Shown here: in pieces, positions 2,386 to 44,609 of the stretch
How the letters are laid out: every line of letters starts with the position of its first letter
Position numbering within the stretch: the first letter of the stretch is position 1
From: Balanoglossus misakiensis
Lineage: Eukaryota > Animalia > Hemichordata
Assembly (NCBI GenBank): GCA_040954595.2
Contig: CM082584.2
Coordinates: 13,447,337-13,511,336 of the forward strand
Direction of reading: 5' to 3'
Length of the DNA: 64,000 bases
The notes under the pieces: model-generated
The model's database searches: none
What the model was told of the DNA's origin: nothing
What the model saw: the letters and a program-made list of their open reading frames with translations, nothing else
Program-made: the position numbers and the translations under genes

Positions 2386-3251
2386 CACAGTGACTGATGA
2401 CATGAAGAACACTCCCAAATTTAGACAGTATCATTAATTTAGATTATGTGAGCAGTGTGGGAGCACAGCAACCAATTGGGACTAATTTCTCTCACCTGGG
2501 AGTGGCTATTTTGCAACTTCAGTTTTAGAGTTCTGTAAATCATGAGAGGAAATTCTTTTTGCAGAATTCGGTAAAAATCTGTCCTGAAGGTTGTTTCAGG
2601 TTGAAAAGGTGTTTGGTTTCTGGAGGAGCCAACAGCTTTAAAAGTCGAGTTGTATTTGTATTTTATTATTCTAAGTCAATGCACCCATAAATTGATTTTC
2701 ATTCACTGAATTGTCAAACAAGACTTTGCAGTATTGGTGAATAAAAATAGGATAAGTTTATTGTATTAACTAGTATCATTGTTCCTCAGCATGTTATAAT
2801 ATCTACATTTTCATATGAAGTGCACGTTGTTGGTAGCCTAATTTAGGGGTGCACCCAAGGTCAGCGCCCTCAGGTCGCTCTTGGTGGCGCTGGTTAAATT
2901 CCAGTGCTCATGGCAACCCCGAACAGAAGCGTTCGTATTCCAACGCGCCTGCTTTTCCATCGCGTCTTTTTCGAGCCATGCAGCTTGTTTATTGTGTGTG
3001 AAATTGTTTAATTGTTGAGTCTAAGTTTAAAAAAAACAATATTAATATACTATGATTTTGACTAGTCGGAGAAAATGGTAAGCGCGTCGAAAATGATGAG
3101 GAAGGGTGTTGTCATTTATCGTCCGCGTCGAGGCGTGGCACGCAGTCGATCATGTTCGATGGAAGTACATGTATAGAACGCTTCAGACAAACACAAACAC
3201 GAATGACGCGTGTTCTCTAGGCATCACTGCTAGTGACACTTGCATCGAGAT

Positions 3252-3767
3252 ATGGATATCACAGTCAAATATTCGCACTACCTCAACGCTGTGACCAAAT
3301 TTATGAACGATCGCCTTCAGGATCTGCAAGGGACCTTCAAAGTCACGGACAGCAAATTTTTGGAGCTGGAGAATTCAACTTCGATGGGAGGTGGTGGTGG
3401 CGTCGACGCCGTCATAAATGGGTATGACAAGTTCAAGGCGAAAATCTCCGACTTGAAGAAGCAAGTGAAAGAATGCAAAGTCTTGGAAGACGTTGTCCAG
3501 AAGATGGAAAGGCTGGACGAGGAAGTCCAGGCGCTCAAAGAGCAGAAAAGTGCGACCAGACGAGAAATGTCGCAGGCGGAGAGGAAGATGGAGAAAATGA
3601 TATCAGAAGTAAAAGAGTGTCGATATTTGAATAAGTTGTTGATGAAACTGGAACAGGACGAAGCAAAGCTGTGGTACTCATTTGTTGGGGTTGAGGAGGA
3701 AACCATGGAAACCGAGATTGGAGACACACAGGACGCCGAAGATCTCAAATTCACCGTTGAATGCTGA
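3252..3767 (+). CDS. Uncharacterised coiled-coil protein (171 aa, single coding exon)
   Basis: First in-frame ATG at 3252 (in-frame TAG at 3231). Long ORF with coding-like composition and E/K/L/M heptad pattern, containing two similar segments (VKECKVLEDVVQKMERLDEE / VKECRYLNKLLMKLEQDEAK). A probable 5'UTR intron lies at 3078-3220 (GTAAG...CTAG). Confidence 0.6.
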   Translation: MDITVKYSHYLNAVTKFMNDRLQDLQGTFKVTDSKFLELENSTSMGGGGGVDAVINGYDKFKAKISDLKKQVKECKVLEDVVQKMERLDEEVQALKEQKSATRREMSQAERKMEKMISEVKECRYLNKLLMKLEQDEAKLWYSFVGVEEETMETEIGDTQDAEDLKFTVEC

Positions 3768-4893: not shown

Positions 4894-7800
4894 ATGGCGG
4901 TAATTTTGATTCGCCACGTTTGCAGTTTCCATCGCATCATCGTCGTCTGCTTCCTGCTGCTCAATGTTTTCCTATGTCGGTGCAATCTTAACAGTCCGTG
5001 CGAGGAAGACAGAAATGGGGTGATAGTTTACAACGCCTGTATGAGTCGGATGACATCGCTTAGTAACCTAGCCGCCGACATCACCGTGAGAGTTGACCCC
5101 GAGGATGCAACTTGTGGCATTTCATCATCAACAACGACGTGGTGTTCAATGGTGAGTTTTCCTGTTTTACATTACAAGTTACTACATTATTTTTTACGGA
5201 GGCTGGTTCGTTACACTTGTTAGGATCTTGTCGCTGACTTAATTTGCTTGTTTATAGTATACCGTTATATTTATTCGGAATATTATGATTCGGAAAATGA
5301 TGACCCGTATATTTTTTGAGGTCACCATGATTGTACAGATACGTACGTGTGTATTTGCTCTCTCGTGTTACGTGATCATGAATACACAGTGAGGTAAAAC
5401 TCGCATATGAAACTCGGGCTAAAAAAAGCCCAGTATATAAGTCGGTCAAACGAACAACCGGAATACGTGGCAAGGTTTAATTAATTTTAGCTAGTTATTC
5501 TAGTAGTAATTTATAAATTATAGGTTTTCTTTGGGAGCACTGCATCTCTGCATGTAGAGCCGACAGGTAGAGCTGACAGGGAGGCTTATGAGGTCTGAAA
5601 ACATAACAAATAGCTGCCAGCAGGCAGCCAGACTGTTTTCGTTCTGCGTCATTCAGATTTCATACATTTTTGTTCACATTTTAAGCCCTTTAAACCACAC
5701 ACAGATTGCAAATCTGCAGCTGTTGACTCATTTAACCATATTTTGTATAAACTGTTATTTTGTGTACAACAATGCTGAGACGCATCCAATATGACAGTAG
5801 ATTTATCAACATGTAAAGTCACACTTTTGTTGTTTATATTCACATGATAATAATTAAATATTAAAGACTCTTTAATATTTAATTATTATCATGTGAATAT
5901 AAACAAAGACATAGTTGTGTTCAACTTATTGTGAAAATGAAAATGACAGTTTTTGGCCTGAAGTACATGCAGCTGTTCATAGGATGGCATTGACCATTGC
6001 ATGAACTCATGGTGCAGAAAAATCAAACTGATGAGTAATCCTGGCATTAAATGACAATTTGTTCACACAATAATAGAAGTGGCAAAGACCTTTTGCAGCT
6101 GGTGTGGTTTATTTGGCTGGGCATGAACTGGCAACGGTCATGATCATGATATTGCAGTCACTGGTATGTTTCATCAGTGACAATTTCCTGTTTTTCTGAA
6201 TTCTCATTTCTCTTGTCTCATTTCCTGGGTCATTGGGAAGTGCACCTTCAGGCTTCAAGGCAATTGGAGCATGTGTGTTTATATTAATTTGTGAATGGAT
6301 ATATTATTAAATCAGGAGGTTATGTCATATCCAGTTGGTGACTGTTATTTGATTTGGAGAGGGACAGCGTCATAGAAATTTTATGAAAGGATCATTCCCA
6401 TTCATCTCTACTGTTTACTGTGATGTAAACATTTAGACACAATCTAATTATTATATCAGTGGCTGGCAGCTTTTTGACTGGCCTGTTTTTTAAGAATTTG
6501 CTAAAACTAGTTGATGGATTTGTTAATTGTGGATGAAATCTCAGGTAAACTGACTGGCAAAGATAATTGCAAGGCTGTGCTAGTGATTTTTGAGGGACAA
6601 CATTGCCATGGAACTCATGGATCGGACAAAATATGTACCTGTATTTTTAACTTATTTAGCATGTAACTGATGACCGCACAACAAATAATTACTGGTATCA
6701 TTCTTCAACTGAATTGATATGAACAATTAATGAAATAAACTGGCGAAATTAACAAGGGAATAATGACAGAAAATAGACGTGTATCGTTGGTTTGATAGTT
6801 AACTGCTGTGTTACATATTGTGGACTATCTGACAATTGATATTAAAACTGTTTGTCAGCTTACTATTCACAGTGCAAGAGGTTGTCTAAAAAGTTGTGAT
6901 ACTAATGGACGTTAATGGATCCACCCGATGTGTATCTGACTCATTGTCCCGTGATACACTTAGTATTGTCAGTTGTGTATTGTCCTACCAGCATGATGTC
7001 TGGTCACAACTGTTGTGATGGCCGCGGCCATGGTGGTGGCTGAATGGCACATCAATTCAGCTTGCTGGGCGACACACTGGCACATTCCATTATTCTAACA
7101 GGTGGTATTAAAGCTGTGTCTGGTCCCAGGATTGGATTAATTGTTAAAGAATTAGTGGTTGCATCAACTGTTACAATATCACACTGCTGACACACTGCAT
7201 GTATTGGCATTTAATGAACAATTTTCTGAACTGTTTGTTTGCTGTGTGAACCTGTACAAATTTACTGATTGATTGATTGATTGATGGAGAAAATTTTTAT
7301 TCTGCTGAAGTGATAGTCCTGCATGTAATTCAATACACTATTATTTAACTCTTTGTTTTAACTTCACTTGGAAAAAAACATGTCAGTGGTCACTGGGAAG
7401 TACTTTCAATGTAAAAATTTACAGCAACTCTTTCAACTAATTTTCTATTTTCCTCCTTTCTGCAGTTGTCTGCCACTTCCGAGTGTTATGTGTGTGCATC
7501 AGATGTGCCAGCTTATGCCCATCCTCCCCATCTCGTCATCGACCAAGAGCAGGAAGGGAGTCCGCCAACATTCTGGCAGTCGGTCACCTGGAACAACTAT
7601 CCCACTCCACTGGAAATCTCCCTCACTGTGTCCCTGGGAATCCAGTACGAACTCCATGATGATATCAAAATAACATTCCAGTCTGGACTTCCCAGGAAGA
7701 TGATCCTGGAAAAATCCTTGGATCACGGAGTGACTTGGAACACCCTACAGTACTACGCTACAGACTGCGAATCTGACTTCAACATGACTGCAGGTGTTAA

Positions 7801-8457
7801 TATAACCTCTCCGAGCCAAGTTGTCTGTACAGAAAGATATAGCCCTCTATTGATATCAAACTTTGGAGACAATGTTGAGTTCTCTATAAACGATCGATTT
7901 GCTCTCCTGGCTGGACCAGACAGCAACAATCTAGGCAATGTCTACTACCAACTAGAGACGAACAAAAGTTTCAGTGATTTCATTACATTGACAGATCTAC
8001 GCTTAAGACTCTTAACACCAGCGTATCGCACTGATGTCACTGACATACAGTCGCTAAATCAATATTATTATGCTATTTCCAACATAGCAATGCAGCTGAG
8101 GTGAGTATGTCCTTAATTCATGTCCAAACAAAAGATTTACAAACTAAATCTGTGGTGGCAGTCTCCACGGTGGCACGATTTGGCAAAAACCTCGAAAAAA
8201 GTAAAATAAACATGGTTGTGGCAATATCCTTGTTAATTTCAGGTGCAAATGTAACTTACATGGACAATATTGTCAAAATGTTGATGGTGAGATGACTTGT
8301 GTCTGCAAACACAACACTGAAGGAAGGCAGTGTGAACGGTGTCATCCAGATTATATGGTGGTACCATGGCAACCAGGCTCCTACTTACCTTATCCAGATG
8401 GCACAGTGAATGAATGTAAAAGTAAGTCATGCATCATCATCGTCATCCTCATCCTCC

Positions 8458-8502
<45 letters not shown>

Positions 8503-11500
8503 ACTCACTGGCTCATATACCGTAGGGGGAGCCCTTCTAAAGTTTAAAAAAAAATGTCATGGGCTGGTACAAATACACCATACCCTCCTATGAAGCCAGC
8601 TATTGGATGAGAGTCTGTGTATAATAAGCAATTCATTTGTGTGCTATTTTCTAACACGACTGGCATTTTCCATTTTGGGGTTCCACTACAAAATTGTTAG
8701 TAAATGAATTGGATTGAAATTATGAATTGTCATGCATGCTCTTGCTTGCATGGGCACTTCATTATTTGCATGAACCATGAACTCTAGTTGCACTTGAGTG
8801 AATGGATGACTGTGTGTGTACATTAGGTGCATGCTTGCTGATGCATAGGCAGGCATGATCACAGAATATAAATGAAATATAAATGAATAGAGTTTACTGC
8901 AGTACAGTGCACTTTGCTCTGCTATTCCTACTGACGTCTGTTGAATGAAATATGTTCTGTGCTTCTGTGGACAGCAGATGCTCGATAACATAGCATGTGA
9001 TATTGGCTCAAACAAATACAAGCCAAAATGACTAAGCATGATTTTTGGATTTTACTGTGGCTTGTGAATTTCGTTTACCCTGATATGTTCATTTGTGCAA
9101 TTAAGATACTCTAGAGTCCAATAAATGGTTCAAAACTCCCATACAACATTTATAAACTGTCGCATATTAATGAAGTTTTTGTGTTTGAAAATTAATATTC
9201 ATGGCCATCATATCTACGGCTTCTGAGAATGTTACCTTTAACATTTTCCAACATGACACACTTGTTCGTACATCCACAGATGTTCATATCTTACCATAAG
9301 GATTGTATTTTTATTTCCATATTTTCTTTCCATTAATGTGTCATGAGGTGATCTGACAATATAGCATCATTTTAATGACATATGTCCTTATACAGGCTGA
9401 AATTACCTCTGTAATTCAGTTCATCTTCTGCCGGCCATCATCTGTCAAACACTACCTTACAGTGTGAAATCATTCCAGCATAATCTTTGACACTAGTATG
9501 TGGTCCCTCCAGTCATTCACCTATGAATAACTCTTCTTCACTTCTGTGCTCAAGCTCCCCGTTCCAGTCATACTGACAATCACAGTCAGTCCTCTTCCAG
9601 CTATAACTCCCTCATATCTTACCTCCATCCCCGTTCTCCCCAAACCCCACATCATACCTGTCATCAAAGTCCCATGACCACCTCTCCCCATTGCACCTTC
9701 CACTAAACTTTGCCACCTTTTTTCTACGGTAGGGTCTTTGTGTCTGTGCTTAAATTAATACTGTATCGCACAGAATAGACTGACTGTGATTTGCAATCCT
9801 CAATCCGGAGTCTTAGCATTATATTTTCCATGTCAATTTCATAAGTTGGCTGTCAATAGTAGATAATTTAATTAAACTCATGTCAAATTACTGTCACTGT
9901 GTTGAACAAACACACAAAGCTAATCACTGGAAAGTGATTGACACTTTCTATTAATGACTATTAGGATTAATCCTTTGTTATTCTTTGATCACTTTATATT
10001 CTGTGCAGGACATTTGCACATGCAGTCTGAATTTCTTTAAATGGATCTGTGAACCAATCCTTGCATTAAGTAATTAAAACACATTTTATTAAGGTGTGAG
10101 CCAGAATGTGAGACTAATTTATGATTGTGAAGTTTACCCTATATGTTCCTAATGAAATCTGGAGAAACTCGCAGTTCATGGCCGCAAATGCGTACAAAAT
10201 GTTGCTTTGACGTCAGTATGTACGTATGCTGCATGAATGATGAGTAATCCTGCGCATGTGTGGGATTTAAAATAGCATTATGTTAAAGAGATGCTTCTTT
10301 TGTCATTCAGATACGAACGCGCGTTGTTATGCAAATGAACCGTCATTAATAAGAGAGAGTGGGCAACAATAGGTCACCTTTGTATCGGCTTGCAAATGAG
10401 GGTGGTTTGTGGATAGAATTCAAATTAAGTACGCCATGAATCAGTTGTTTACATGGACCTCGTCGAGTGTGGTTTGCAAGTCGTGTCCGAAATGGAGTAG
10501 CCAATGACATATCTCGCTCAAGTCTGGCCATTGCCTGTGACCTTCCTAGGATCGGTTCAAGTCATGTTATGGCGGTAACACCCCGTAGTGGTCTGTGAGA
10601 ACACCGACTTTTCCTATAGATGTATAGTTTCAGTATATTCCGCATGTGTGATGAAGCCTGTGGTCACTCGTGAATCCAATATGACGTTGTACATGATTGG
10701 TGTCCTGTTGCTGTTGGTGGTACCTCCCAACAACTCCCAGAATTTAACCAACGGTATGTGGCAGGTGTTTCTATTTATTTTCAAACTATCAGCTTCTGTG
10801 TGTTGGCTGTAGATAGGGGCGTCATGATCCAAAACAATTAACAAGTGAAAATGGCTCTTATATTGTATATATACCCCAAGTAAGATGTACAAGCAAGTAC
10901 AATTTTTACCGGTTTTGGGAATTGTCGTTTGGGTGTATGGACTAAGCCCTTACGTCAGTAAGTATCCACAGCATAGATCAACTATAGGACTCTGTAACTT
11001 CTTCAGTAGCTATTCTATACATCAAGCAACAGTTCAATACAAATATAGCTCACAGCAGATAACATTTGCTTTGAGACAGCTTACATCCCTCCGTAAGCAC
11101 ACATACACTTAATATATGTACATATACGTGTTCATGCCGTCGTAGTCTCATTCATTATTTCAGCAGGAAGTTAAGCGGTCTAGAGATCTGATGCTCAGGC
11201 AGGAAACTGAACATTCAGGTTTTAGACAGTTAATTACATTCTAATTTTGCCCCAAATGTGGTCATTAAAAATAAAAACCATTTTGTAATAAGCAAAGGTC
11301 ATAGTATGCCAGTATAAATGTCTCTGGATAAATTCCAATCAACGTACTGTGTTATCCAAGGGGTTTTAATTTTTATTTCAAGGTTAAATGAAATTTCGCT
11401 AATGGGTGAATTGTCTGGTTTGATCTTTGTTCGTTAATGCTGAACTGAGGTCATATTATATGTTTAATTGTTTCAGTGTAGAGAACACGCATATTGAGAG

Positions 11501-14500
11501 AGTATTGTGTGTGTGTTTCAGTTCACCTATGTACAAAGATGCATTTTTTATGTGGTCAAAGACATTGTAGTGCCTGCACATTATATTCTAGAGTTCATCT
11601 GATGGATGGACTGTATGTGGGTACATGCATGGTGCCAGTCTAAATTAAGTGTTAAATAAATAAGCTGAATCACTGACTGTGAGATGATATATGGCACACT
11701 TAATTTCATGAGATGTTTCAAATTGTATGATTATGAAAATCGTTTACTTCATGACCCAGATATTCCAGATGTGAAAATAGCCCTTTTTTTCATCATTTTC
11801 TTTTTAATGTTCAGTGTTAGAGAAATTCATTTGTCCTCTTTATCTACTGACTCAGATCATATAAGCAACATCTCCTGGTAAAACAGCCATGAGCTAGCTC
11901 TAAGCCTCTTTGTCAGGTAAATATGTTTAATTCCACAATGCTTCAGTAAGAAAGATCATTCCAAGACACACATTCGCAATGTGAAGCACCTCAAATGGCC
12001 TCCCTATCCTTATAGGTTACAACATTCATGCACCTGTTGTACTCTTGTTTGACAAAAAGGAACTGACCAATCAAAAACAACCTTACGAGACCCCTGCCCA
12101 CGCAAACGCTGTCATCGACAGGAAACAGATAGTGCACAATAATCTACTAGAACTTGAACTAGTGGAACGCTCTGATGGGTACCGTTTAGTTGATACAAGT
12201 GTACTCAACAGTTCATTAATATTCACACGTGTAAATTTAGATTTGATTTTGTGACATGTGTGGGCATAAATGCATCTGTAGGTGTGTCAAGCAATTTGAT
12301 AATGAGGTGTGGCAGATTTTTGTGTATTTATGGAAGCAAATATGATATGTCAGGTTTGAAGCTTAAATTGAATTTGTATGATGTCTATTGTGGACATTTT
12401 TGGCATAATGGAGAAAAGTTTAATAACTTATAAGAAAATGCTGCCTACCGGGTACATCATAAAACTTAACTTTTATGCCCCTTGGAGGAAATGTTCCAAA
12501 AATCATTCTACATACGTTTCAAAGGTGAAAAGAGAACCAAGAGGGTCATACAGATGTTTGCCAACTGTCAGCCATATGGCAACATGTAAATATTTTGTTG
12601 TTTCAATTCTGAAATTTACACAATTGCAACCGTACCATTCTCTTGCATGAAATTGATTCAATTGACTCAGTAACCTGAGTAAATTTCAAACACATATCTC
12701 CATGCCTTCAAACAACTATTTCTGCTTAGCCCGGGGTGACTAATGATATTCCTGATATTAAATAAAACTGACCAGGGATAAATCCCACTACTGTTTATTG
12801 CCGGTATAAGTTACTACATTAAGGACAAGTAACTAGGCTAGGTAACAAATTAGCATAGCCTTAGTTCAGTGCTGTACATCAGTGCCCATATCACAAACCT
12901 AATGTTCATTCTTGTCAACTAGGGTCAATGTCTGAGCCCTGAAAGCAATTATCTATCATGTGACCAAGCATTAAGTCACTTGATATCAAGAACATAGAAA
13001 CTGTCTAGTTGATTAATGAAAACTGACAAAGATGCAAAGGAAATTATCCATTCATATTTCTGTCTGGCTGCAGATACAATCAGTCAAAATTTATAATATT
13101 CTCCTGTCTGGGACATATGTGGTATGAAATAAAACATGTGTATTTTGATACTTCAGTCTAAAATATAAAAGATGCATTTTGGAATTAAATGCAAAGAAAA
13201 TTGATAAATAGAACTGCTTACATTTATCTGAATTTGTTCTTGAGTTATTGGGAATAACTCATATACCGTAAATGTATGCGTATCCAGTTTAATGATTTGT
13301 TTTGTGTACAGGGAATTGATTGTTTCCGTGGTAGCAATTATCATGTTATTGATACTTGTGGATTTCATTTAAACTTACATCAATTAATATTGCTTAACAG
13401 TACGTGATTGATGATGGTTTTCAAGATATGCTTACTGTGTTTTGCTATAGTTACAGGGGAACATTGGTAAATGACTGGGGAACCCTGGTCTTTTGGTGCA
13501 TACTCCTGGTAGCTGTCATTCTACCACTGCCCATACATTGCATCTATAAAGCCCAACACCAAAACCCCTGGCAAGAAACTATAGTCAGAAAACTACATGT
13601 TCACATCATTTCATGATCCATGCTTAGAAGTGACAAAGTGGCCATCTTCTGATATATTGCTTTTGACCGCTTTATCTTTCATTTCATCACATGGGTCTGT
13701 TAACAGTTACCATGAAAACAACAACAAATCAACAATTAATGCACAAAATAATTTCAAAAGATGCCAACTTTGTCTCTCTCACATGTTCTTCTCATGGTGG
13801 TGGTATGACCATCTCTTCAACTTTCTTTCTCTCTCTCTCTTTCTTTCTCCTCTTCCCCTTCTTGCAGAGTGCCAGTGTAATGCTCACTCCAATGTGTGTA
13901 GATACGATGCCAATTTGGATGAAGTCATCTGTATCTCTTGTCTTCATAATACTCACGGTCGTCATTGTGAACACTGTCTTCCTGGATTCAAACTTGATCC
14001 TTCCAAAGCACCAGATGACCCCGACATTTGCCCACCAGGTAAATATCGTGTACAAGTTTTTGGTAGATTCAACTTAAATATAAAATAGCAGGGATTTATA
14101 ACAAAAAAGATTAGTGTTTTTGGACAAAAATTGACTTCAAAGTACCAGTAAATACTGTGTAGCCCCTTCGACTATCAAGATTTGGTCCAAATATGACTGA
14201 ATCTTTTTCACGGCAAGTTTTGGTGTGTATAAAACAGCAACTAGCAATTTACAATATCCAACGTTCTTAAATTAATGTGTGAAGTTTGTCTCTTGAATAG
14301 TTCGAACATTACATTTCCTTTCATTGTTTGACATATTGCAGTTGGGAGACTGTGGGTGTGAGTGATGTTTTCAATGAGTAATATTTCTTGTGGGTGTGAA
14401 CTGTGTCTGAGATATTAATGCTTTTATGTGGATTTTAGTAATATACTGCCCACATATGTTGGTGATGTGTCCATTAAATAAAAATTAATGAATGCCACAA

Positions 14501-14701
14501 ACGTAATCACCAAATCAACATGCTAGAACTTGTTGCCACTATTTCTGGAATTTCATTTTACTCACAAATAGTGCAGGTACAGTGGCATGTGTGCTATTTG
14601 GAAATCATGTGTAATGAATTCAGAAAAAACTTCCAGAATTTTTAATATGTATGGGCCAATTGTCTCATGTCAAAGGTTATGATCACCTGTTATATCATCA
14701 T

Positions 14702-14759
<58 letters not shown>

Positions 14760-17700
14760 TAGATGAGATGAAGAGAGCAGTTGAGATGGAGTGGAGAAGT
14801 AAAGATTTAGTGGGCGAGTGAGAGAGAAAGAGAGAGAAGGCTTGATAGAGTGGGAGAGAGAGGAAATGTCTGTCCTACATATGCAGGACTACGTGCAGTG
14901 TGGGTTGCAAGGTTATTCAATTTAAGATATACCGTATACTGTAGATCTCCCTCAATGAAATAGAGCATTACTAGAATGAGCACCAAGTTTGAAATGTAAT
15001 TAATTTAAAGACCATTATAACTGTTTACTGTTGTATGAAAAACTATGTGTGCTTTAATAATAATATGGAAATGATAATTGATCAATCAGTGGAGAAAGTC
15101 TATTGGGAAATATCAGAACATAGTTATTGTATGGGTAGTCAGCTGTCATGTGATATGATATGACATACAACCTGAGTAGAGGCCCATAGTAGCCTTGTGT
15201 AACAGCTGAGATCAGTTCATGAATAAATTAAAGGGGAGTATCAATCTTTATGCAGCATAAAGTTATAAATATCTTTCAATTAATTGTTATTTCATGAGGG
15301 GTTTCAAATGAAAAAATGTATGTTTAATTGGGCTAGTGGTATTTTGCAAATGTTTGTACATATTTTATTGTAACTGATGTCCATGAGAAAAGGATTATAT
15401 TAAAATTCCACATCAGCTGCATGAGTAGTGAGATTAAAGGTCAGCCAAGGTTAAATGTTGTAGTTCAAAATGTTGATTTCTGGGAAAAGCAGCTGGATTG
15501 CATTGTCTCTTGAAAGAATTTGATGCAGACCAAAAAATGTTCTACATACAACGTATTAAGTAAACTATAATTCTTTTCTTAGTAAAGGAGTATGTGTATT
15601 TAATGGCTTTTTTGGCAAAACCAAGCAGGTCAGAAATGCATCAAGCATGATATGGTTATCTAATATGAATAAACATTAAGAATGCATTATGAAATTATAT
15701 CACATGAGAGAGCTCATCAACTAGATATGATGACCTAATATTTCTCATGGATCATGATGGCTACACTATGAATATTAATCAAGTCTTGGTGGCGAGCGAA
15801 GTCTGGAATTCACTCAAGTAAAACAATGATCATTGAAGCTGAAAAATTAAAAGTGATGTGCAGTAATGGTTCTTCTTTGGTGATTATTTGCCTGTTTGAA
15901 TTTTCTGTGAGAATTGCCTTCACTCGTTAAAGTGTTATTAGGTCATCAACTGAGTGTTAGCTCCAGGTTGATTGAATGATGAAGCTGAGACCAGACTGTC
16001 ATAAGCCTTGAAGTAATATAGGCTGAGTCTAGCTCATAGTGTATTGATGAGTATACAGTAGCGTTATAGTAATTTTTTCAGAATTATAAATTGGTTTTGT
16101 CACAAACATAGAATTGAAGTTAAAATGGGTTTTAATATAGGATTTGTAGCGACTTGAGGGATGACCATGTACAGTTGTTTAAATACGTTCCTTGTAAAAA
16201 TGCTTGTATCCCCGTATCATATACCAGTACATACATACATATTCAATACACTATACATCTTGGATTTCACAGTATCTGAATACCCGTATGAATACAGATT
16301 TCCTGCAAGTGGAGTACGTATCCCAGGTGGTGGTAGTATTAAAATTCAAATGCCAGGTATCCATTGTCTCTGTCATCTTGGTGTCTTTCTGATCGATGTA
16401 CATTTTATTTCATGTAAATATGTTGTAATTGTATCATAGATGTTCACTGTACAGTCGATGTGTTTGTGGCATAGTAGGTCTCGTTGCTTGTAACTTATCT
16501 TTGTGAGAATGACTAGGAATTTAAGTGTAGAACTTCCTAAAGATCAGAATAATTATTGCAGATGTTATTTTTCAGAATTTTATTTTTAATTCACATTTAT
16601 CACTGGCACATTTTTGATGATATGGATGTACATGTACATGACGTATTCTGTGAATGCATGCATGTATGCATTAAAGCACATCAAAGCAATTATATTGAAT
16701 GTTGCGTACCATCAGTGTTTTTGCTAAAGGTTCACCAAAGCATGGTGGGTAAATGTCTTGTGACTGATCTTTCAGCCGAGGGGGTAACAACATCTTAGGT
16801 CTGCAGGACTCATAGAGCCTTATCAAAAACACTGATGGACTTTTAATATATTAAGATTGAATCATCTTTGAGCACCGGATTAGAATAATGTTGCAGGAAC
16901 ATCTGCCCAACTTATTGCTTGAAACAACGAATTATGTTTTGTTAGATTTGCATGATTTGTCTTTTTTTTTGGGGGGGGGGGGGTTATTGTTCTCCTCAGA
17001 GATGATTTAAGAGCAATCTGTTAATCGATAGGTAAAACACTGCCCCATCCACTTTTCCAAAATTGATCAATCTACTGCTTACTTTCCACAGTTCTTTGTG
17101 AATATTTTGTGTAGTCTCACTGCCCTTAATGGATATTTGCTTCCTCTAAAGTTGGCCAACTTCTTCTGGGGAGAACAAGTTTTCCACTTTAATAATTGCA
17201 CTTAAGTAAATGTCTCTTTGCATATTGAGACTGGAATGACTGTATTGCATGCATTATATCTTTTTTTGTTGCATTCTGTTACAGATCAGTCTGTTTCCCC
17301 AACAATGAACAACTCCGATTTACTCGCACCAACCCTGTCACCAAGTATGCCGTTCAGCATGCCATCCTCACTTGCCGTGTCAGCGTCCAGTGCAAGTGGA
17401 CAGCTGCAACCAACTCCTGCACCTTCACTCTCTGTCTCCCTAGCAACGCAATCCCTTGATGTCTTGCCTGCATCACCAACACAACCCCTCCCTTCTGCAC
17501 CAGTTCTGACAAACTCTCCCAATGTAGTCCCATCCACTCAAGTGCCAGCTGTCACCCCTGCATCCACATTTAATCTGGTCCAAACTGCCAGCCCCACTCC
17601 AGATTCAAATTCAACCGCTCCTCCGACAGAATCACCGGATCCCTGTGACCCGAACCCTTGTCTGAATGGAGCAACCTGTATACGTAGTGGCTCTCAGTAT

Positions 17701-20700
17701 ACCTGCAATTGTTTACCAGGTTATGAGGGTAAGTTGAATCAATTTTGGTGAGAAAAAAAGTCCAACTGAATGCCGTACTGTATTGTAACAATTACATGAA
17801 GTGGTATCGTTGGTCGGAAGTAACACTGGAAAACCACAGGAAGAATTGGAAATCCTGGATTTTTGTGTAACTGGTGCAACCCGCAGACTTTTCTTTCAGA
17901 CATTCATGAACTTCTTTCTTCTTTGCAGGTTCACTTACAAATTGTTCTCTTAACATTGATGAGTGTGCATCTCAGCCCTGTGTAGAAGGTCTCATCTGTG
18001 TTGATGGCGTGGATGAGTATACATGTTTGACCCCAGGGCGAATCAATCCTTGTGATCCAAACCCATGCAAACAAGGAGGAGTGTGTGAAGTTGTTCCCAG
18101 TGCAGATTTTCTCTTCAGATGCAATTGTCCGCCAGGCTTTGAAGGTTAGATTAACATTTTACTTTAATGTGCGCTGTGAAAAAAAATTACATTACCAGTA
18201 CAGTATTATCAAGAAGATGTTCATTACAGTATAGGAATATACATGTGACTGGTTGGAATGTACAAATCTCAACACTCGGTTTTCATTTGAATTTTTTTTC
18301 CATATGTTCCACCTTTAGGACCGGATACAAGATGCAGATACGAAATTGATGAGTGTGCTACAGAACCTTGTCGAGCAGGATTGGTCTGCAAAGATGGCAT
18401 TAACTCGTACACCTGTGAGCCAGTAAGAGCACCTGATGAGGAGGATAATGATCTGGAAACTGTAGATGACACTGAATCTGGCCCTGTAAGTCATTATTCA
18501 CATGATTATCCTGTTTTCCAATGAAATCATCAATATCTGTTCATTTTCATCATAATCATAATCTTGTGATTTTTCAGAAACCTCTCTCACAGATGATGAT
18601 CATTGTCATCGCTGTGTGTTCTGCGGCCGTCGTGTTCTGTATCATCTGGACGGTATTCTTTGCCTGGTACACCATGCTGGATCGCTCGGGCAACCATGTC
18701 ATCAAACCGCCCAGGCTCAGTAACCCTCTGTCTCCCATGGCCAAGATTGTGGAGGAACAGAAGAAGAAGTTGAAAGAACAGAACCAGAATAATGCAATGC
18801 TTATAGAGAATGCTTCACTACAGGATCAGATGGGGGTAAGTTTTTTTGTCAGGCCAAGGTAGGGTAAATTTAGTAGTTGGTCACAGAGGCATGTAGAATA
18901 TATGTGAGTGTTGTACCGGTACATTTTTGTCGTGACCCGTTATCTATTTATAGCTTTGTTTGTAAAAGTACCTCTACATTCAGGCGTAGCGTGTCAAAAA
19001 TTGCAGGCGATTGAGTGATCGAGGCAGTCTGTGTCAGGTTCTAAGTGGTACCAGTTTGATGGTAGTTATTGATGGTAGTTATTGATTCGATGAGAATTTT
19101 ACAGTCACTGTACAGTTGTCTAGTTTGACTAGACATTATGGCTTCAGTTGTAGAGGTGAGATGCAATTGGGATTCATTTGGACTCATAAATAGGAATTCT
19201 GCGTGCATTTGTGTCTCGCCGTGTTTGTGTGTCTGCAGGCAAGTGTGTGCGTGTGTAAGAGTGATGTACTTTCTACCATTACCTGCATTTGTTACAGGTT
19301 AAAGTCTTCTCTGAAAACGTTTTATTTCTTCTCTCTACTTTCAGAAAAAATCCCAACGGGTGCCATTAATCCCTGACAGAAGCTCCTCAGTGAAAATGCA
19401 CGCCTTGAAGGCAAAATGGAATATTGAAGAGAAAAACCTGAAGTTGTCGCGACTTCTAGAAAATGGTGAATTCTGCTACATAAAGGAAGGGCAGTACGTC
19501 AGGAAAGACGAGTCCGAAGTCAAAGTGGCATGTAAAGTTCTAAAAGGTAATTTTGAAATTTGTCTGTGTGGACTCTGACAGATGTAGTCATCCAAGCCAT
19601 CAAAATTAAAATCTGCTATTCATGTTGACATTTTTTGATTGGGAGAAGCTTAGGTCTCACCTAGAAAGTTCACAATTTAAAGATTGATTTATGGAATGTT
19701 TCTTTCAGATCCCCGAAATGAGCAGGCAAACCGAGAATTACTGAACGAGTTTGAAATATTAGCACACTTGTTGCCTGATCCACGAGTTGTTGTCTTACAT
19801 GGACTTTGCAATCTTGCTCAAGAGAGAAACCAATTTTCAAGTAAGTTGGTTTTGTTTACTGTTGCAGCCTCTTAAAAATTCAGAGTATGCTAGAACCAGT
19901 TTCTAGAAGGTTCCATCAGTGCTGTTGAGGTTTGTTTACACACATTTGGGTTGCATGACAAATGACAGTCTGTCATGAATTCAAATTAAAAACAATCAAA
20001 ATCCTTCTCTGTGTTTTTCAGCTCAGTATTGTTTAGTGACAGAGTACGTCTCTAATGGAAGTTTATTGAGGTACATGAGAAGATGTCGGAGCAGGAAGAG
20101 AGATGAACCCCCACGGTATAATATTCCCCCAGCGGAACTTATGAATATTATTTGTGATGTTGCACTGGGGATGAAATTTTTGGTCACACAAAAGGTATGT
20201 GTTTTGGAAGTATCTTTGCAGACACTATGCAATTGCTAAGTTCAGGTTTAGTTTTATCAAAAACACTCTTTTTTAATCTCTTTGATATGATGATCTTTGA
20301 GGCTGGAGTATTGTTGTATTGTCATAGCGTTTTTGTACAATATGTATCAAGCTCATTTATCACACGACCATATTGTGAGTTGAAGTCCAACAGATGTTTT
20401 CCCAGATCGTCAAAATAGCCTGCTGACAGAACCATGCTTTGAAATGTTTTCATCGGACAAACAACATATTGAATTAGTAACAGGCTCTATACCAGTAGAA
20501 ATATTGGACTCTTTGTCCTGGAGTGTAAATGGTTTCTGGCTGAAATATTTTTTAATAATAAATTGGTAGCGCTATGTAAATGTTTGCGTTACTTTCATAC
20601 CAGTATGTGTAAATATTGACTAGATTTCTGTCATATATGTGGATACACAATTTTGACTCAATATTTGTGTAAAAATTGTAACATTCATGGCAACTATTTT

Positions 20701-22056
20701 TGTTTATTTTTCTCAAATGATACAAGTTTATTGTTCATCCAATGCTTATAGAAAGCTAAATGCTCACTTTATTTGATTTTTAACAAATTTTACCACCTAT
20801 CAGTTTGACTGCAGAGGACTGCTCAAAGTAACTGAATGTATATTTGATTACTTTACAGATTGTACATAGGAAACTAGCCGCTTCCAATGTTTTAATAACT
20901 TTCAATAACAGGGCAAAGATCTCTGACTTTGGCCTTGCAGCTGACATGTTTGAATTTGGAGATTTTGTTCGAACCAATGAACCAGTAAGGGTAAGTCACA
21001 AATTGTCTTTCATAGAATCCTGGAACTTTGTAGATTTTCTTTCTGAGATACTATTTCACATGAAAGTTGATTCAACCTAGGCCAAATCTGATGATCCCTT
21101 TGTACCAATACTCTGCTGCAGACATGGCCACTGTCTGTGCTGTACCCTGACTGACTATTAATCTTGATATTAGACAACAAGGTTCTTTAGGGGCTTACCT
21201 GACAGTAACTGCAACTTGTACCTCATTTGTAGCCTTCACTGAGAAGATGGCTGGCCTATGAGAGTTTACTGGATGGTGTCTTTAGTCACAAAAGTGATGT
21301 GTAAGTAACTCTCTTTCACATGATCACAGTCTTACAACAGAGTTTTTTTTAAATCACTTCTTTTATGAACTGCTGGATAAAAATATTATCTTCTGAGTGT
21401 GTACATTATCATGAGGGCGGTGCAGATAACAGTTGTTTTTTTTTCAATCTCTTTTGCCTCAGGTGGTCGTATGGTATATTACTTTGGGAAATCGCAACGC
21501 TTGGTAAGTGTATATTCTGTTTGATCTCCGTCCATGTTACAGGTACTGCATGTCATTCACATTGTTGTTTACCCTTCTTTCCATTTTAGAGTAAGGTGTA
21601 CAACAGAAACACATTCAGTCTATTCCATGTTTTTCCCTCTCAGGTTCCATTCCTTATCCCGGAATCAGTATGAAAAGATTGCCGGAAAAGCTAAAAGATC
21701 ATTACCGGATGGAGAAGCCCAAGCATGTTTCCCAGGAATATTACGATGCCATGCTGCGATGTTGGCACCGTAAACCGGAAAGCCGACCCACTTTTGATCT
21801 TCTTTGTAAAGAAATGAAAAAACTTCAAAAAATGGGAAAGGTAGGGCTTGCTGTTGTTTTTTTCCCACAAAGACCAGTGGCTTTCTGACTCAGTCATATT
21901 CTATTGATCATGTAGCTGGGAAACTGCATGGAAATGACCATTATTTTTCTTTTTTCTTCGCAGACCCATATCTCTTTAAAAGATTACACTTTTGTACACT
22001 ATTACAGCCTCAGGCCGACGCCCGACAGTGAAGATGAAGATGACTCATTTGTTTAA
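4894..22056 (+). CDS. Netrin-G-like (LN-LE-LE)/mucin/EGF transmembrane receptor tyrosine pseudokinase, 16 exons
   Basis: Exons 4894-5151 (signal peptide, LN start), 7466-8100 (LN), 8243-8421 (LE1), 13868-14038 (LE2), 17285-17728 (S/T/P stalk + EGF), 17929-18144, 18319-18485 (EGFs), 18578-18835 (TM), 19345-19546, 19709-19840, 20022-20194, 20859-20990, 21233-21300, 21463-21503, 21644-21840, 21964-22056 (kinase and tail). All GT-AG and phase-compatible. Netrin-G motifs: TFWQSVTW, MILEKSLDHGVTW..QYYATDC, RCKCNLH, WQPGSYLPYPDGTVNEC. Kinase motifs: VACK, HRKLAASN, KISDFGLA, RWLAYESL, SDVWSYGILLWEIATLG. Confidence 0.8.
5830..5906. repeat. Perfect inverted repeat, 38-bp arms with 1-nt spacer
   Basis: ttgtttatattcacatgataataattaaatattaaaga-c-tctttaatatttaattattatcatgtgaatataaacaa; the arms are exact reverse complements. 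Confidence 0.95.
8431..8501. repeat. (CAT)n microsatellite, imperfect at the 5' end
   Basis: Direct reading; lies just after the LE1 exon donor. Confidence 0.9.
10681..10753 (+). CDS. Candidate alternative first (signal-peptide) exon within intron 3 of the Netrin-G-like receptor
   Basis: ATG-initiated MTLYMIGVLLLLVVPPNNSQNLTN followed by G|GTATGT phase-1 donor, matching the phase-1 acceptors at 13868 and 17285. CpG dinucleotides are noticeably more frequent just upstream. Confidence 0.55.
14702..14755. repeat. (GA)n microsatellite
   Basis: Direct reading, followed by degenerate purine-rich sequence to about 14862. Confidence 0.9.
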
Positions 22057-25000: not shown

Positions 25001-25187
25001 ATCTACTGCTGGTTAACTCGCTATATATCCTGTCAGTGTCAAATCTGGCATCCTCTGTACAGTTTGAGGGTACCTAAGGCTGTCTGCCATTTAATTGCTA
25101 CTGGTTAATATCATAGGTTTTTGTTTTTACACACAATGTACTAGGATATGACTTCACTAATTCCTTGTAATTTCTCTCTTCAGAATA

Positions 25188-28100
25188 ATGGAGGCTAAAA
25201 AAGAAACTAAAGAAGATGAAGGGGACAGAAAACCAGAGGCGGCAACTGCCACTGCAGAACCTACATCCAGTTCAAGCAAAAGTTCAGCATTTGCAAAAAG
25301 TGGTTTTGATGAAGAAAAAATTAGTGCTGCTCTGAGTGCGTCACAGGATCTTGACAGAAAATGTGAGTATAGTTACTTTTTTCCGACTCCAGGTTAAATG
25401 TTCAAGGCAGAGGAATCACGATAGTGTATTTCTCTATCGTCACCTGTGTAACTCTGTATATGTAGCAGTGTGTGTGTATGTGTCTGTTGTGAACAGCATC
25501 TGGCCTATATTACACTCAGAATTGTTTGTTCATGTGTGTGTGTGTGTGTTTGTTTGTTTTTTTGTTTGTTTATTTATCAGATAATCACATGTCACCAACT
25601 AAATGTTCATGAATCGATCTCATTGACATCGCTAGGGCAGGAAATGCAAGACAAAATGAAACAACTGACTGTGCTGATGGCCAAAAACATGCAGGCAATG
25701 CTTGGGGGAGCTGTTCCGATCAGCGAAGAAGACAAGAAGCAAGTACTGGATGAGCTTACTCTGGAAGGAGTTGTCAAGTACATCAAAGATGGCAAATGTG
25801 AGAACATGTATAGAATATACTTTGAAAGTGTCTTAACATATTGATTGGTCACTCACCTGGGCTTAATGTGAACACTGTATGTATAAACAATGTCCCTGAA
25901 GACACACCATTCCTCCTGGCAAGATTTCAAGGATTAAATTGTTGTACAAAAATATACTTCTTTTTATCAAATTATTGATTTTCTTTTATTATCATTTTTT
26001 TAAATAGGTAAGAACATAATAACTATGGCTGGAGCTGGCATATCCACAGGTGAGAGGGAATTTCATGGACTGCTTCATTTCAAGCATTTATAATCATAGA
26101 CAGAGTTCATGTTTGTCAACAGTACTAGAGAAGATAGCTGTACAGATAATACACAATGTATTGTTAGGTGATGGATTTAAAACGCATACAGTGGTAATTT
26201 CTCAGAATTATAATTGCACATGCTTGAGTGTTTCATCTGTTAACATTTCAGCTGCGGGTATTCCTGATTTCCGAAGTCCCGGCACTGGTCTGTACAATAA
26301 ACTGGAAGAATATAATCTGCCTTCACCACAGAGCTTGTTTGACATCAACTACTTCAAGGTACACTTATCTACAAATAGAAAATGTTATACTGCAACAATC
26401 ACAGACTCTTTGTTATATTCTGGGTCATATTGAATTCATTGTTTCTGACAGAAAATGACATGTTTGTTTTGTGACATGTTTCCAGAAAAATCCAGAGCCG
26501 TTCTTCAAGATCAGAGTGAGAGAGTTTTACATGAAAGTTGGAGAGTACAAGCCGACACTCAGCCATTATTTTATTCGCCTGCTTGCTGAAGAAGGCTTGT
26601 TGCTAAGGCATTACACACAGGTAACAAGGGTTCTTTTTCCTCTTGTATTTATTCAATATTTTCCCTTAATTTTGGACCAACATTCATTCATTATTCATTC
26701 ATTCTTTCAGAATATTGACACTCTCGATAAGAAGGCTGGTATTCCTGAGGACAAGACAGTATTGGCACATGGATCTTTTGAAACTTGGCACTGTCTTGGT
26801 GAAGATTGCAAGACGTCTTATTCACTGGACTGGATCAAGAGTGAGTGTTTGACAATTTTTAGCAAAGATGTTCCTCTGTATGTGTGTTAGAGGTCACCCA
26901 AGGGTACTGTAAATCTTGGTGGATCACTGCTACCTCTATGTCAAGTTGGTCTTAGCTTTATGAATGCAATGCACAGCATTAATATTGCAGCACACAAAGT
27001 AAACTCCTATGGATATCTGTGCATGTATTGGGCATAACCAAGAAGTTTGTAAATTGATAAGTTGTACTTGTCAAACATTAATTTGATTTTCAATCATGTT
27101 CTATTATCAGAGGAGGTGAAAGCTGACAAGATCCCAAAATGTACAAAATGTGGCATTGTTATCAAACCAGGTGAGTCAGAGACCCACCTTTGCTTAAGGT
27201 GTGGCACTGCAGTTTCCATGGCAATTCTGGCCAAATGTTGACTAAAACTCTTTTTGTTTATCGATGTTAAACCAATATGAGAAGGGTTGCAACAAGAGTG
27301 TCAATCACTCCAACAAATCAAGCAGTAAAAATCAATCGATCAATCATTTCTGTTGCAGGCATTGTGATGTTTGGTGAAGCTTTGCCGGAAAGATTCAGGG
27401 AACTATCTAATGAGGTTTGTGTCTTGCTTTAAGTATTACAGTCAGTTTGTCTGCTCAGTGAAACATTGGAAGGCTCCATAGATGCCATGCTGGATTGCAC
27501 AGCGCTCTCATCCATAGATGACCTATTTTGGGTCTTGACTCCATTGCCATAGAGTAGTCTTCCCCCACTTGTTGATGCATACTGACACTACAATAGACCA
27601 AACGATGATGATGAGAGTGAAATCATAATGAATAACCCGACATTCTTATCTTCTTTTATGAATGACTGTGTGACTTCACTTTCAGGATTTTGAACAATGT
27701 GATCTGTTGATAATCATTGGCACATCTCTGGCTGTTCAACCATTTGCTTCACTTGTTAACAGGTATGTGGCAGTTTTCATTTCAAAATGATTTGAATTTG
27801 ACATCACAACACTGAGATAAAAGGATTACAGTATCACAGCTGATGTTGATATTATCTGAGCAGTGTCTATTGGTTGCCATGAGGTTTATATTTTTATTCC
27901 ATGCGATAATAGCATTATAGTTTACAGATATGTCATTGATAAAAGCAAAAGCTGAGAAGGCTCTAGAAAGCAAATTTAAAGAAAATCTTTTCCCTCTTTC
28001 CCATTTCAGGGTACCAGTGTCTACTCCAAGACTTCTCATAAACCGGGACAAACCTTCTGCCACTCAAGTGAGTACTGTCAATCATTTCCACACATAACAC

Positions 28101-28849
28101 AGTAGCTACACACAAGTTTCATGTCTGTAAATTTGGCGCATGCGCGTAAGACGACCCTCACTCTTTAAAAGACCAGAATAAATATCGCGGTATTTTTAAT
28201 TCAGTCTGACGCCATGGGAGCGCTTTTTGGAGTATCACCCACGACGCATTTCCAGTTTGACATGGAAGATAACTATCGCGATGTTGCCTACTTCGGTTTG
28301 TGTGACGATGGCTGTGGTCGTCTAGCCGAGCTTCTTGGTTGGAAGGTACGTTATCACTCACCTTGTGAGATTTATTGTCTTGATGTGGTTGCTGGAAATT
28401 TAGAAATTATAGGAACGCTACATGAGTATTGGAATTGCTTCCTGAGACATAAATTTATTGCTAAAACCAAATTACCGTACAGACACCATATTAAGGACAT
28501 GTCATCTTATCTTCAGGGGATTTCTGCCCAAAAGGCGTCCCATACTAAGTTGGAGGCTTGTAAACATGCATTTTACAGAAATCATGGTGCAGCAAGCATA
28601 CTTGGTTAAGCATTTTCATAATGACATCTGGTATGAATCGTGACTGGGTCAGATTGCATACTGGGATTTGACGTGAAGCAACTAGTTTTATCCATGAATA
28701 GAAAAATCAATCAGCTGAACAACTTCTTTTCTTATTTCATCTGTTCTTTGTAGAAAAAGCTGGAGCAGTTCATGAAATCAGATTCCTCCAGCTCTTCCAG
28801 GAAACAAACACACCCACACTGTGGAGCCAAACACAAGGGGACCAAGTAA
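25188..28849 (+). CDS. SIRT2: NAD-dependent deacylase, sirtuin-2-like (class I sirtuin), 12 coding exons
   Basis: Approximate exons 25188-25362, 25636-25797, 26008-26049, 26252-26358, 26486-26620, 26711-26840, 27111-27170, 27359-27414, 27686-27762, 28010-28067, 28206-28346, 28754-28849. Motifs: [47 protein letters not shown], four Zn-binding Cys, [36 protein letters not shown]. Confidence 0.88.
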
Positions 28850-32101: not shown

Positions 32102-32965
32102 ATCGAAATGGACAGGGAGGGATGTGTTCGTTTCAAATCGGCTCTGGGCGCTGCAGCTGGAGCTACTATGTCATCGGAGACACTACACTGACTGACGATG
32201 ATAGACTCTCACTCTCCATAGCCCCTGCTCAAAAAACCTGGGCAGCTGTGCGATCGAGACCCCGGAAATAGAGTGCCCTCGGGGTCGTGTGTGTCTGTTT
32301 ATAACCTTCCCTTTAATATTTCCCGTCATGCAATCGCGAACTTTTCGTCTTTTGGTGCTCATGCTATCCAGAGCAGCGATGTTTTGGAATGCTGATTTTC
32401 CCATTGAAATTGATGACATTCATTGCAACTTCTTTATAATCATAACTTTTTTTTATTGATCAAAGTAATATTTTACACCAAAGATCTATAGGCCTAAGGG
32501 ACTGGTCAGTTTCTTCAGCCTGGGAGGGGGAGTGGATTAATGGGGGGCCACCCTGTTTAATTGGGTGATGGGGGTCACCTTGTTTTGGAAATGCTGAATG
32601 AGGGACTAATAATTGCTTTTGAGTCCACAAACATGCAAGTTTCGAGCTCTTTATATTTCTAACGTGGGTGGGGACACGTCAGGTCTTACGATCACTTTAC
32701 CAGAATAAGTTTCCGCTGTTCGCAAATCTACGCATCCGCGTTTTGTCTGGTGTTTGCCGACTTTATCAGCGAACAAGATGGCTTGAATCTGTCAACAGTC
32801 ACTGAGACCATTGGCAGCCGATGCAGCAAAGAATAGGCTACTGTCCACATTAGCATATGACAGGTCAAGGTGCGAGGCCAGTCTTTTTGTCCCAGTGTTT
32901 GTCAAGCATCTTACGAAAAGTTCAGTCTATCAGGCGAGTGGTGCCTGGAAACAGGAGTGACCAAC

Positions 32966-39100: not shown

Positions 39101-39295
39101 CCGGGCACTATATACAGTGACCAAGGCAATTCACCGGGAAATCTACCGGAACAGCCGGCACTTCCAGACCCAGCATACCCACCTCAAGGTGCACCACCTA
39201 CGGGGAACACAGGACACGGACCGCCAGCCCATGCTCAAGGAGCGACTAATCACGGTTTCCAAGACGACCCTGCATATCCACCAAGAACGTCATGA
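36132..39295 (+). CDS. CUB + LDL-receptor class A single-pass membrane protein with Pro/Gln-rich, PPxY-containing tail
   Basis: Exons 36132-36216 (signal), 37502-37656 and 37886-38111 (CUB: YKSNMDCRITL, CYDFLEVYDG, LKTDG...SGFSLIFTAY), 38375-38518 (LDLa: CSSGRCIDSSLECDCKDNCGDDSDE), 38703-39295 (TM, then PPPYAPPPY). Phases are consistent. Confidence 0.82.
38240..38328. mobile_element. Short MITE-like element with terminal inverted repeats (copy 1)
   Basis: Begins AACCCTTTCACC and ends GGTGAAAGGGTT (12-bp TIR). Intronic; related copy at 55369-55457. Confidence 0.65.
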
Positions 39296-43929: not shown

Positions 43930-44438
43930 ATCGATGTACACTTTCAAGGGTCCTTATTCATGGAAAAGTTCCTTTCAAACACACTGTGTTGATCACGTCT
44001 TCAACGGTCACAGTTAGCCCAATACTGACAATGACTATCTTGAAGTAGATTAGTAACATATTGTTAATCTTTGTTGTCTATTAATTGACATTTTTGTATC
44101 ACGGGTAGTGACTTCTCTGTTCAATGTGAACAGTTTTGGAACGGATGGCGAGTCATATGTGTGTGACAGAGGTGATATTTAAGCTGAAAATTAGTGCCAT
44201 TTGACTTGGATTAAGTATGTTTCTTTCGCTCATATGTCTCATAACACGCAAAAGACACCAAGAAAACCCTATGTTGCTAATTATTATAATATGTTTATTT
44301 TCTTTCTCACATTGCTGATTGGTGACTAACCAGATAACATCTCGAGTAATTTTAGGTGTCAGTGTAAAACATGTAACTGGCATAAAATAGGATTGTCATG
44401 ATAATTATACATTGAAACTCGTTGAGCAGTGTGGCGCC

Positions 44439-44585
<147 letters not shown>

Positions 44586-44609
44586 GTATCCCTTTTATCA
44601 GTCATGTTC

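Follow-up and report, generated by a model that had tools for sequence, protein, structure and literature searches.

The window described here is a stretch of 64,000 nucleotides from the hemichordate Balanoglossus misakiensis (assembly GCA_040954595.2, contig CM082584.2, positions 13,447,337 to 13,511,336 of the forward strand). All coordinates below are counted within this window. Close to its start lies a gene for a receptor that joins an extracellular head of LN and LE domains to a kinase fold. The gene consists of 16 exons between 4894 and 22056 on the plus strand. Together they form one frame of 3366 nucleotides, coding for 1121 amino acids, with a lone stop codon at the end. All 15 introns carry an AG acceptor and a GT donor at the modelled boundaries. 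The protein begins with a signal peptide, followed by an LN domain, two LE domains, a mucin stalk, EGF domains, a transmembrane helix, a tyrosine-kinase fold and a PDZ-type tail. When the X1 protein of Ptychodera flava is compared with the window by tblastn, all coding exons are matched, and in the right order. The sequence supports the view that this is a single receptor, in which an LN-LE head is joined to a transmembrane helix and a Tie/Ret-like kinase fold. The first-pass annotation of this DNA had already read an unbroken run from head to kinase, and the single frame bears it out. Its exon coordinates and phases were also right; for instance, the LE2 exon ends in phase 1 and the exon at 17285 starts in phase 1.

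The head is encoded by the first four exons, which like all the others lie on the plus strand. Exon 1 (4894..5151, residues 1-86) provides the ATG, a signal-peptide-like N-terminus, called by hydropathy alone, and the start of LN. It is 64% identical to residues 1-87 of the P. flava X1 protein. Exon 2 (7466..8100, residues 87-297) encodes the core of LN, which is of the Netrin-G or laminin-beta/gamma-like type. Exon 3 (8243..8421, residues 298-357) encodes LE1. Exon 4 (13868..14038) encodes LE2 and is a symmetric phase 1-1 cassette.

The stalk starts in exon 5 (17285..17728), which contains a mucin-like segment (50% serine, threonine and proline) and the first classical EGF. Exon 6 (17929..18144) adds a further EGF unit. 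This unit is found only in the window gene and in P. flava, being absent from the related proteins of Glandiceps, Saccoglossus and echinoderms, and it looks like a tandem duplication in ptychoderids. Exon 7 (18319..18485) holds the end of an EGF, a truncated EGF and an acidic linker. The single transmembrane helix (about residues 696-722, 18593-18673) lies in exon 8 (18578..18835) together with the juxtamembrane segment. Its hydropathy peaks at 2.87 at residue 696, and it is 79-89% identical across three hemichordates.

The kinase-like domain (residues ~800-1085) is spread over exons 9-15 (19345..21840). Its first part is encoded by exons 9-12 (19345-19546, 19709-19840, 20022-20194 and 20859-20990) and the rest by exons 13-15 (21233-21300, 21463-21503 and 21644-21840). 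Exon 16 (21964..22056) encodes a tail with three tyrosines, an acidic patch and a terminal S-F-V before the stop. We take this ending to be a class I PDZ-type motif.

Pfam was run on single exons in 15 pieces, five of which gave no match. Laminin_N was matched in exon 2 (E 4.6e-39), EGF_laminin in two exons (E 2e-9 for exon 3) and EGF in two. The PK_Tyr_Ser-Thr family was matched in four exons, three of them above the cut-off. No NTR (netrin) domain was matched alongside these, and the Pfam matches and the translation contain no laminin-style long LE array, L4 domain or coiled-coil long arm. Likewise, Pfam found no Ig-EGF-FN3 or cadherin-like ectodomain of the Tie/RET type. The protein thus has the make-up by which a Netrin-G is recognised, namely LN, up to three LE domains and a classical EGF without NTR. 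It lacks the glycosylphosphatidylinositol (GPI)-anchored end of Netrin-G, which has no cytoplasmic domain, and has a transmembrane helix and a kinase domain instead.

Some exons of this gene are probably optional. Five gene models exist for P. flava: a full form, one that lacks LE2, one that lacks the mucin stalk, one that lacks the two, and an LN-less form that has a separate leader. The LE2 exon is skipped in X2 and X4 of P. flava and absent in the echinoderm proteins. An in-frame internal acceptor at 17630, within exon 5, would remove the stalk and match X3 and X4. In addition, an alternative first exon lies at 10651..10753 on the plus strand, with an ATG, a hydrophobic leader of 34 amino acids and a phase-1 GT donor that fits LE2. 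It is 70% identical to the N-terminus of P. flava X5 over 30 residues (E 2e-10, compared with 1.3 for the runner-up in the window), and is predicted to give an LN-less isoform starting at LE2. Records of Amphiura and Holothuria also include an LN-less form, which starts just after LE1; the leaders are short. The first-pass exon set stands, then, except that this exon and the acceptor at 17630 were overlooked.

The long introns on both sides of LE2 were searched for an exon that could end the head by itself. Searching introns 3-4 by tblastn with 11 queries revealed no exon for an LE3, an EGF or a GPI signal. A simple acceptor rule, which weak sites may escape, gave 15 acceptor-like sites; three stay open for at least 25 amino acids, none with more than one cysteine. 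Neither approach turned up a GPI or stop exon belonging to the head in 8422-13867 or 14039-17284, the regions in which the first-pass annotation had suggested looking for one. Just after the LE1 donor, at 8422-8525, there is a trinucleotide microsatellite, and retention of this intron would add a hydrophobic poly-isoleucine tail and a stop. As a membrane anchor this read-through was rejected and taken as chance, because a similar repeat occurs at 44391-44754.

The same design is found in other animals. LN and kinase occur in one record in nine species, three of them hemichordates and six echinoderms. The hemichordate records are P. flava XP_070563209, Glandiceps XP_077982054 and Saccoglossus XP_006813789. 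The echinoderm records are Amphiura XP_072027705, Acanthaster XP_022109922, Anneissia XP_033108235, Antedon XP_071953444, Apostichopus XP_071842550 and Holothuria KAJ8040007. Pfam was rerun on seven of the nine and found both domains in each. When longer proteins were searched with the LN exon, 21 matched, and the three best, from P. flava and Glandiceps, contain both Laminin_N and PK_Tyr. When the query is the intracellular region of the P. flava protein, Saccoglossus and echinoderm proteins score 316-693 bits, above RET at about 196. These records are labelled uncharacterized, splB-like or Netrin-G1, and LN-less isoforms are labelled FGFR-like (for example, “FGFR3-like”). A protein atlas look-up gave only generic tyrosine-kinase clusters.

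Because nine other acorn worms and echinoderms share this design, the receptor likely represents an undescribed family of enzyme-dead receptors more than 500 million years old. The idea of a lineage-specific, exon-shuffled receptor, raised in the first-pass annotation, is therefore too narrow. A kinase profile built from seven members gave six matches at 543-585 bits and then dropped to 250; among 8000 scored candidates of 175-734 amino acids, it found no member outside hemichordates and echinoderms. This absence is weak evidence, because the searches were word-limited.

The kinase domain of the family is, by its sequence, a pseudokinase under purifying selection. The aspartate of the HRD motif is present in none of 12 members, compared with 27 of 28 other kinases. 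Its place is taken by lysine in four members, by asparagine in six, and by alanine or arginine in the remaining two. In the window gene the codon at 20871-20873 is AAA, giving Lys950, and the catalytic-loop arginine is replaced by Ser954. That arginine is lost in 10 of the 12 members. The first and third glycines of the G-loop are missing from all 12 (25 of the 28 comparison kinases have them), and the window protein has lost two G-loop glycines. The glycine of DFG is lost in five members. There are between zero and two activation-loop tyrosines per member, and none in the window gene or in P. flava. Three residues are kept throughout, namely the beta3 lysine, the alphaC glutamate and the DFG aspartate, which in the window protein are Lys840, Glu857 and Asp968.

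This domain is also the best-conserved large part of the protein, and its identity exceeds that of LN at every distance. For the kinase and LN respectively, the window protein is 92% and 73% identical to P. flava, 78% and 55% to Glandiceps, and 75% and 49% to Saccoglossus. For the LN-bearing echinoderm members the corresponding values are 48-51% and 30-37%. Together with the trees, the 92% value places the source of the window most likely among ptychoderid acorn worms other than P. flava. The kinase alignment of 295 positions contains 66 invariant ones, 19 of which are rare in other kinases. The C-terminus is F-V in all 12 members and S/T-F-V in 11, and every tail has two to four tyrosines. 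A confident fold was predicted for the P. flava domain from a 53-row alignment (predicted local distance difference test, pLDDT, 91.6); a 7-row version (45.9) was discarded. The best match of this fold is RET, with a template modelling score (TM-score) of 0.81. In a 40-row tree, which left out vertebrate Tie, STYK1, PTK7, ROR and RYK, the family forms one clade (100/100) split into hemichordates and echinoderms. It is grouped with Tie-like kinases of amphioxus and a sea star (95/96).

The protein thus has the layout of a receptor tyrosine kinase (RTK), with signal peptide, ectodomain, one transmembrane helix and kinase fold, and lacks the HRD aspartate and the GxGxxG loop. With catalytic motif residues lost and the fold apparently conserved, as modelled, it would be classed as a receptor tyrosine pseudokinase. 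The Tie/Ret-like fold named in the first-pass annotation agrees with both tree and model; its term “signalling-competent” needs qualifying, given the state of the motifs in all 12 members.

Several known systems resemble parts of this receptor. Chordate Netrin-G1/G2 (NTNG1/2, with relatives in amphioxus and Ciona) have the same LN-LE1-LE2 head, optional LE exons and lost laminin-type motifs. The family differs from them in having a transmembrane helix and a cytoplasmic part of 400 amino acids rather than a GPI signal, and in having neither LE3 nor the NPY motif discussed below. Amphioxus Netrin-G, for example, has no kinase and closes with a hydrophobic tail of the GPI type. Laminin-beta/gamma-like chains, the group of Fahey and Degnan as cited in the available text of one survey (PMC3516229), share the LN-LE type. 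Unlike them, the family has no further LE array, L4 or coiled coil, and the motifs TDG and P[LM][YF]N are missing from it as well. The kinase fold is shared with Tie-like kinases, RET, FGFR and Cad96Ca (35% identity to RET), whereas the family lacks Ig, FN3 and cadherin domains as well as the catalytic aspartate, and forms its own long-stemmed clade. Finally, HER3, PTK7/CCK4, ROR, RYK, EphB6/A10 and STYK1 are likewise single-pass proteins with a conserved but catalytically impaired kinase. None of these is known to have an LN-LE ectodomain. The searches with the intracellular region and with the kinase profile brought up no STYK1 sequence.

A different membrane-anchored arrangement is seen in some laminin-type proteins. 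The proteins P0234 (Owenia CAH1785885), P0238/P0325 (Patella) and P0250 are laminin-beta/gamma-like short arms that end in a transmembrane helix, and their cytoplasmic tails finish with G-S-L/M-V. In Patella vulgata the LN-LE1 part of this form is the same as in its full laminin isoform. This suggests that, in spiralians, a laminin chain is also spliced into a membrane-anchored form.

In pairwise comparisons the head resembles Netrin-G. The LN exon scores 181-190 bits against the solved Netrin-G1/G2 (190 for Netrin-G2); its scores against netrin-1 and laminin alpha, beta and gamma do not exceed 65. It is about 46-49% identical to vertebrate-type Netrin-G. For LE2, the best match among queries from outside the family is amphioxus Netrin-G (57%, E 4e-16), the others reaching 36-40%. 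Two characters outside the tree point the same way. The motif P[LM][YF]N, typical of LE1 in laminins, occurs in none of 11 family rows and none of 15 Netrin-G rows, compared with 12 of 13 laminin-type rows. A classical EGF precedes the membrane anchor in all eight family members scored and in five of six Netrin-Gs; in laminin-type rows the pattern is found in two of 11, in mid-chain. Because of this shared loss and this shared EGF, orthology with chordate Netrin-G is favoured, and it is quite likely that the family head is orthologous in this sense. The LN and LE motifs held to be specific for Netrin-G in the first-pass annotation had to be rejected as diagnostic, since most of them are present in a laminin-beta/gamma-like chain of Patiria (P0021). 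Patiria has both this laminin-type chain and a member of the LN-kinase family.

One property of vertebrate Netrin-G is probably not shared. Mutating the Pro-Tyr of loop I abolishes NGL binding, according to the available text of PMC3230378. All nine vertebrate-clade rows carry the loop-I NPY motif, which is missing from every one of the 11 family, two amphioxus, four tunicate-type and 13 laminin-type rows. Because the motif is absent, binding of NGL in the vertebrate manner is unlikely for the family.

The best explanation of the locus is one gene with a Netrin-G-type head, a mucin/EGF stalk and a Tie-like pseudokinase, likely signalling as a scaffold and forming the probable ambulacrarian orthologue of Netrin-G. 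On balance this combination is probable. Some observations weigh against it, among them some on the origin of the head. The head of the same receptor could have arisen from a laminin-beta/gamma-like chain independently of chordate Netrin-G, with the likeness due to convergent truncation. In the available text of PMC3516229, laminins gave rise to netrins three times, and Netrin-G nests inside the laminin-beta/gamma-like group. The motifs cited in the first-pass annotation, being common to both groups, the transmembrane forms made in Patella and Owenia from the laminin gene itself, and an apparent further reshuffling of the LN-LE1 unit in Apostichopus would all fit such an origin. In LN-LE1 trees the family is a clade (99/96 to 100/99) within which hemichordates and echinoderms form a subclade each. 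In a 50-row tree (family 100/99) the deep node is open and the tunicate rows are drawn to the base. Once four tunicate-type, five distant outgroup and 12 other rows are removed, the resulting 29-row tree makes the family the sister of amphioxus and vertebrate Netrin-G at 84/89. This agrees with the first-pass placement of the head, at moderate support: 844 of 1000 bootstraps join the family to Netrin-G, and 69 join it to four ambulacrarian-type laminin chains. Approximately unbiased (AU) tests let that latter grouping, with ambulacrarian-type laminin-beta/gamma-like chains, stand (p=0.21 and 0.12; 0.21 for the four chains). The shared motif losses, the EGF before the anchor, found at that place in none of 11 laminin-type rows, and the affinity of LE2 to amphioxus Netrin-G speak for a common origin instead, and an independent head is unlikely.

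Doubt about the joining of head and kinase, or about the loss of activity, leads to two other alternatives. The joining rests on conservation and on gene models of other species, mostly from one pipeline. A secreted or GPI-linked LN-LE gene might lie upstream of a separate LN-less receptor pseudokinase, with its first exon at 10651, and have been fused to it by predictors. Such an internal first exon is real in the window and in the records of P. flava, Amphiura and Holothuria. Furthermore, echinoid records (Strongylocentrotus, Diadema and Lytechinus) are all LN-less, the Patiria record has LN-LE1 without a kinase, both intronless assembly contigs that came up encode LN-less or partial products, and retention of intron 3 would supply a hydrophobic tail. 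On the other hand, one of the joined records in nine species (Holothuria KAJ8040007) comes from outside RefSeq, P. flava has four splice forms with LN plus kinase, and the internal exon splices into LE2, which is itself Netrin-G-like. With none of the exons sought found in introns 3-4 by tblastn or the acceptor rule, and the LN and kinase trees in agreement, a chimera is most improbable. Alternately, the receptor could be an active or weakly active atypical RTK that autophosphorylates on ligand binding. The kept lysine, glutamate and DFG aspartate mean that ATP binding or trace activity is possible, and an intact RET-like fold is predicted. The asparagine found in six of 12 members is the change that characterises weakly active HER3. 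Against activity, the HRD aspartate site appears unconstrained, because lysine, asparagine, alanine or arginine is found there; the catalytic-loop arginine survives in only two members, DFG glycine is often lost, and activation-loop tyrosines are few. Autophosphorylation of this kind is quite improbable.

If the preferred reading of a Netrin-G-type scaffold receptor is right, its working could be as follows. The LN-LE1 head, raised by the stalk, would bind a partner on another cell or in the matrix. It would do so via the loop face used by Netrin-G, and not via the NGL-binding motif of vertebrates. Binding would cluster the receptor, perhaps in adhesion or guidance. Once clustered in this way, the pseudokinase could serve an active kinase as a docking or allosteric partner. 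The model here is HER3, PTK7, ROR and RYK, pseudokinase receptors that signal as scaffolds or allosteric partners. The tail tyrosines would be phosphorylated in trans, and the PDZ-type end may tie the receptor to a junctional scaffold. The LN-less form would come from a second promoter and, being blind to the ligand, may tune or bypass the head.

The head has apparently been combined with other domains elsewhere. Apostichopus XP_071826210 (P0216), on another contig, has a near-copy of the family LN-LE1 head followed by two HYR domains, FN3 and a transmembrane helix, with no kinase. Either the head was reshuffled a second time, or the model is wrong.

The window contains other genes besides the receptor. 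A histone-fold protein (1386-2053) and a coiled-coil open reading frame (3237-3767) precede it. A Sir2-family deacetylase (25161-28609) and an MFS transporter on the minus strand (29147-32170) follow. The next feature, at 32861-34207, is an uninterrupted open reading frame of 448 amino acids with an SMP-30/gluconolactonase domain (E 1.4e-29); it lies in the most GC-rich block of the window and has no introns, in a genome that is rich in them. A membrane protein with a CUB domain and a proline-rich tail is found at 37462-39295. Finally, a receptor tyrosine phosphatase with Sushi, Ig and FN3 exons occupies 48744-61827, 27 kb downstream of the LN-kinase gene.

Published surveys treat Netrin-G as chordate-only and GPI-anchored, as far as their available text goes (PMC3516229, PMC10084454). 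One marks it as absent in Hemichordata and Echinodermata (PMC3516229), and the other, a review, states that it is found only in chordates (PMC10084454). The available main text of a paper on the holozoan tyrosine kinome has no mention of laminin, netrin or echinoderm (PMC8662651), and a review of the echinoderm matrix has no mention of netrin (PMC10381214). No description of an LN-plus-kinase receptor was found in the accessible full-text literature, supplements and subscription papers, including a sea-urchin RTK survey, being beyond reach. That survey may list the LN-less echinoid form as an orphan RTK. Since public domain annotations already display this architecture, it is not unseen, only unnamed. 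The receptor is real, conserved and apparently undescribed.

Two directions of change can be considered. In one, the deuterostome ancestor had a transmembrane Netrin-G receptor whose tail was a Tie-like (pseudo)kinase, and chordates reduced this receptor to a GPI-anchored ectodomain; acorn worms and echinoderms would then have kept the tail. Such a history is possible but doubtful. No chordate relic of the family kinase was found by the word-limited searches with the intracellular part and the kinase profile. In the other, the tail was gained by exon shuffling, which fits the many Tie-like kinases with varied ectodomains that ambulacrarians carry. The two states of anchorage on sister branches cannot be polarised, because GPI signal and kinase are both missing from the laminin outgroup. 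If the tail was indeed cut in chordates, this would explain why vertebrate Netrin-G needs co-receptors and would hint at a former signalling route.

It is the ectodomain that defines an RTK class; no LN-LE class was found in print, and we know of none. The present family is old and has been kept in acorn worms as well as in crinoids, sea stars, brittle stars and sea cucumbers. With it, the list of receptor pseudokinases grows by one that evolved independently and is open to knockdown in standard embryo models. The family is probably the ambulacrarian Netrin-G, the missing invertebrate counterpart of a vertebrate synapse protein. In this sample the NPY motif used for NGL binding is confined to vertebrates. 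If the orthology holds, the origin of Netrin-G, a family of human neurodevelopmental disease genes, would shift back to the deuterostome ancestor.

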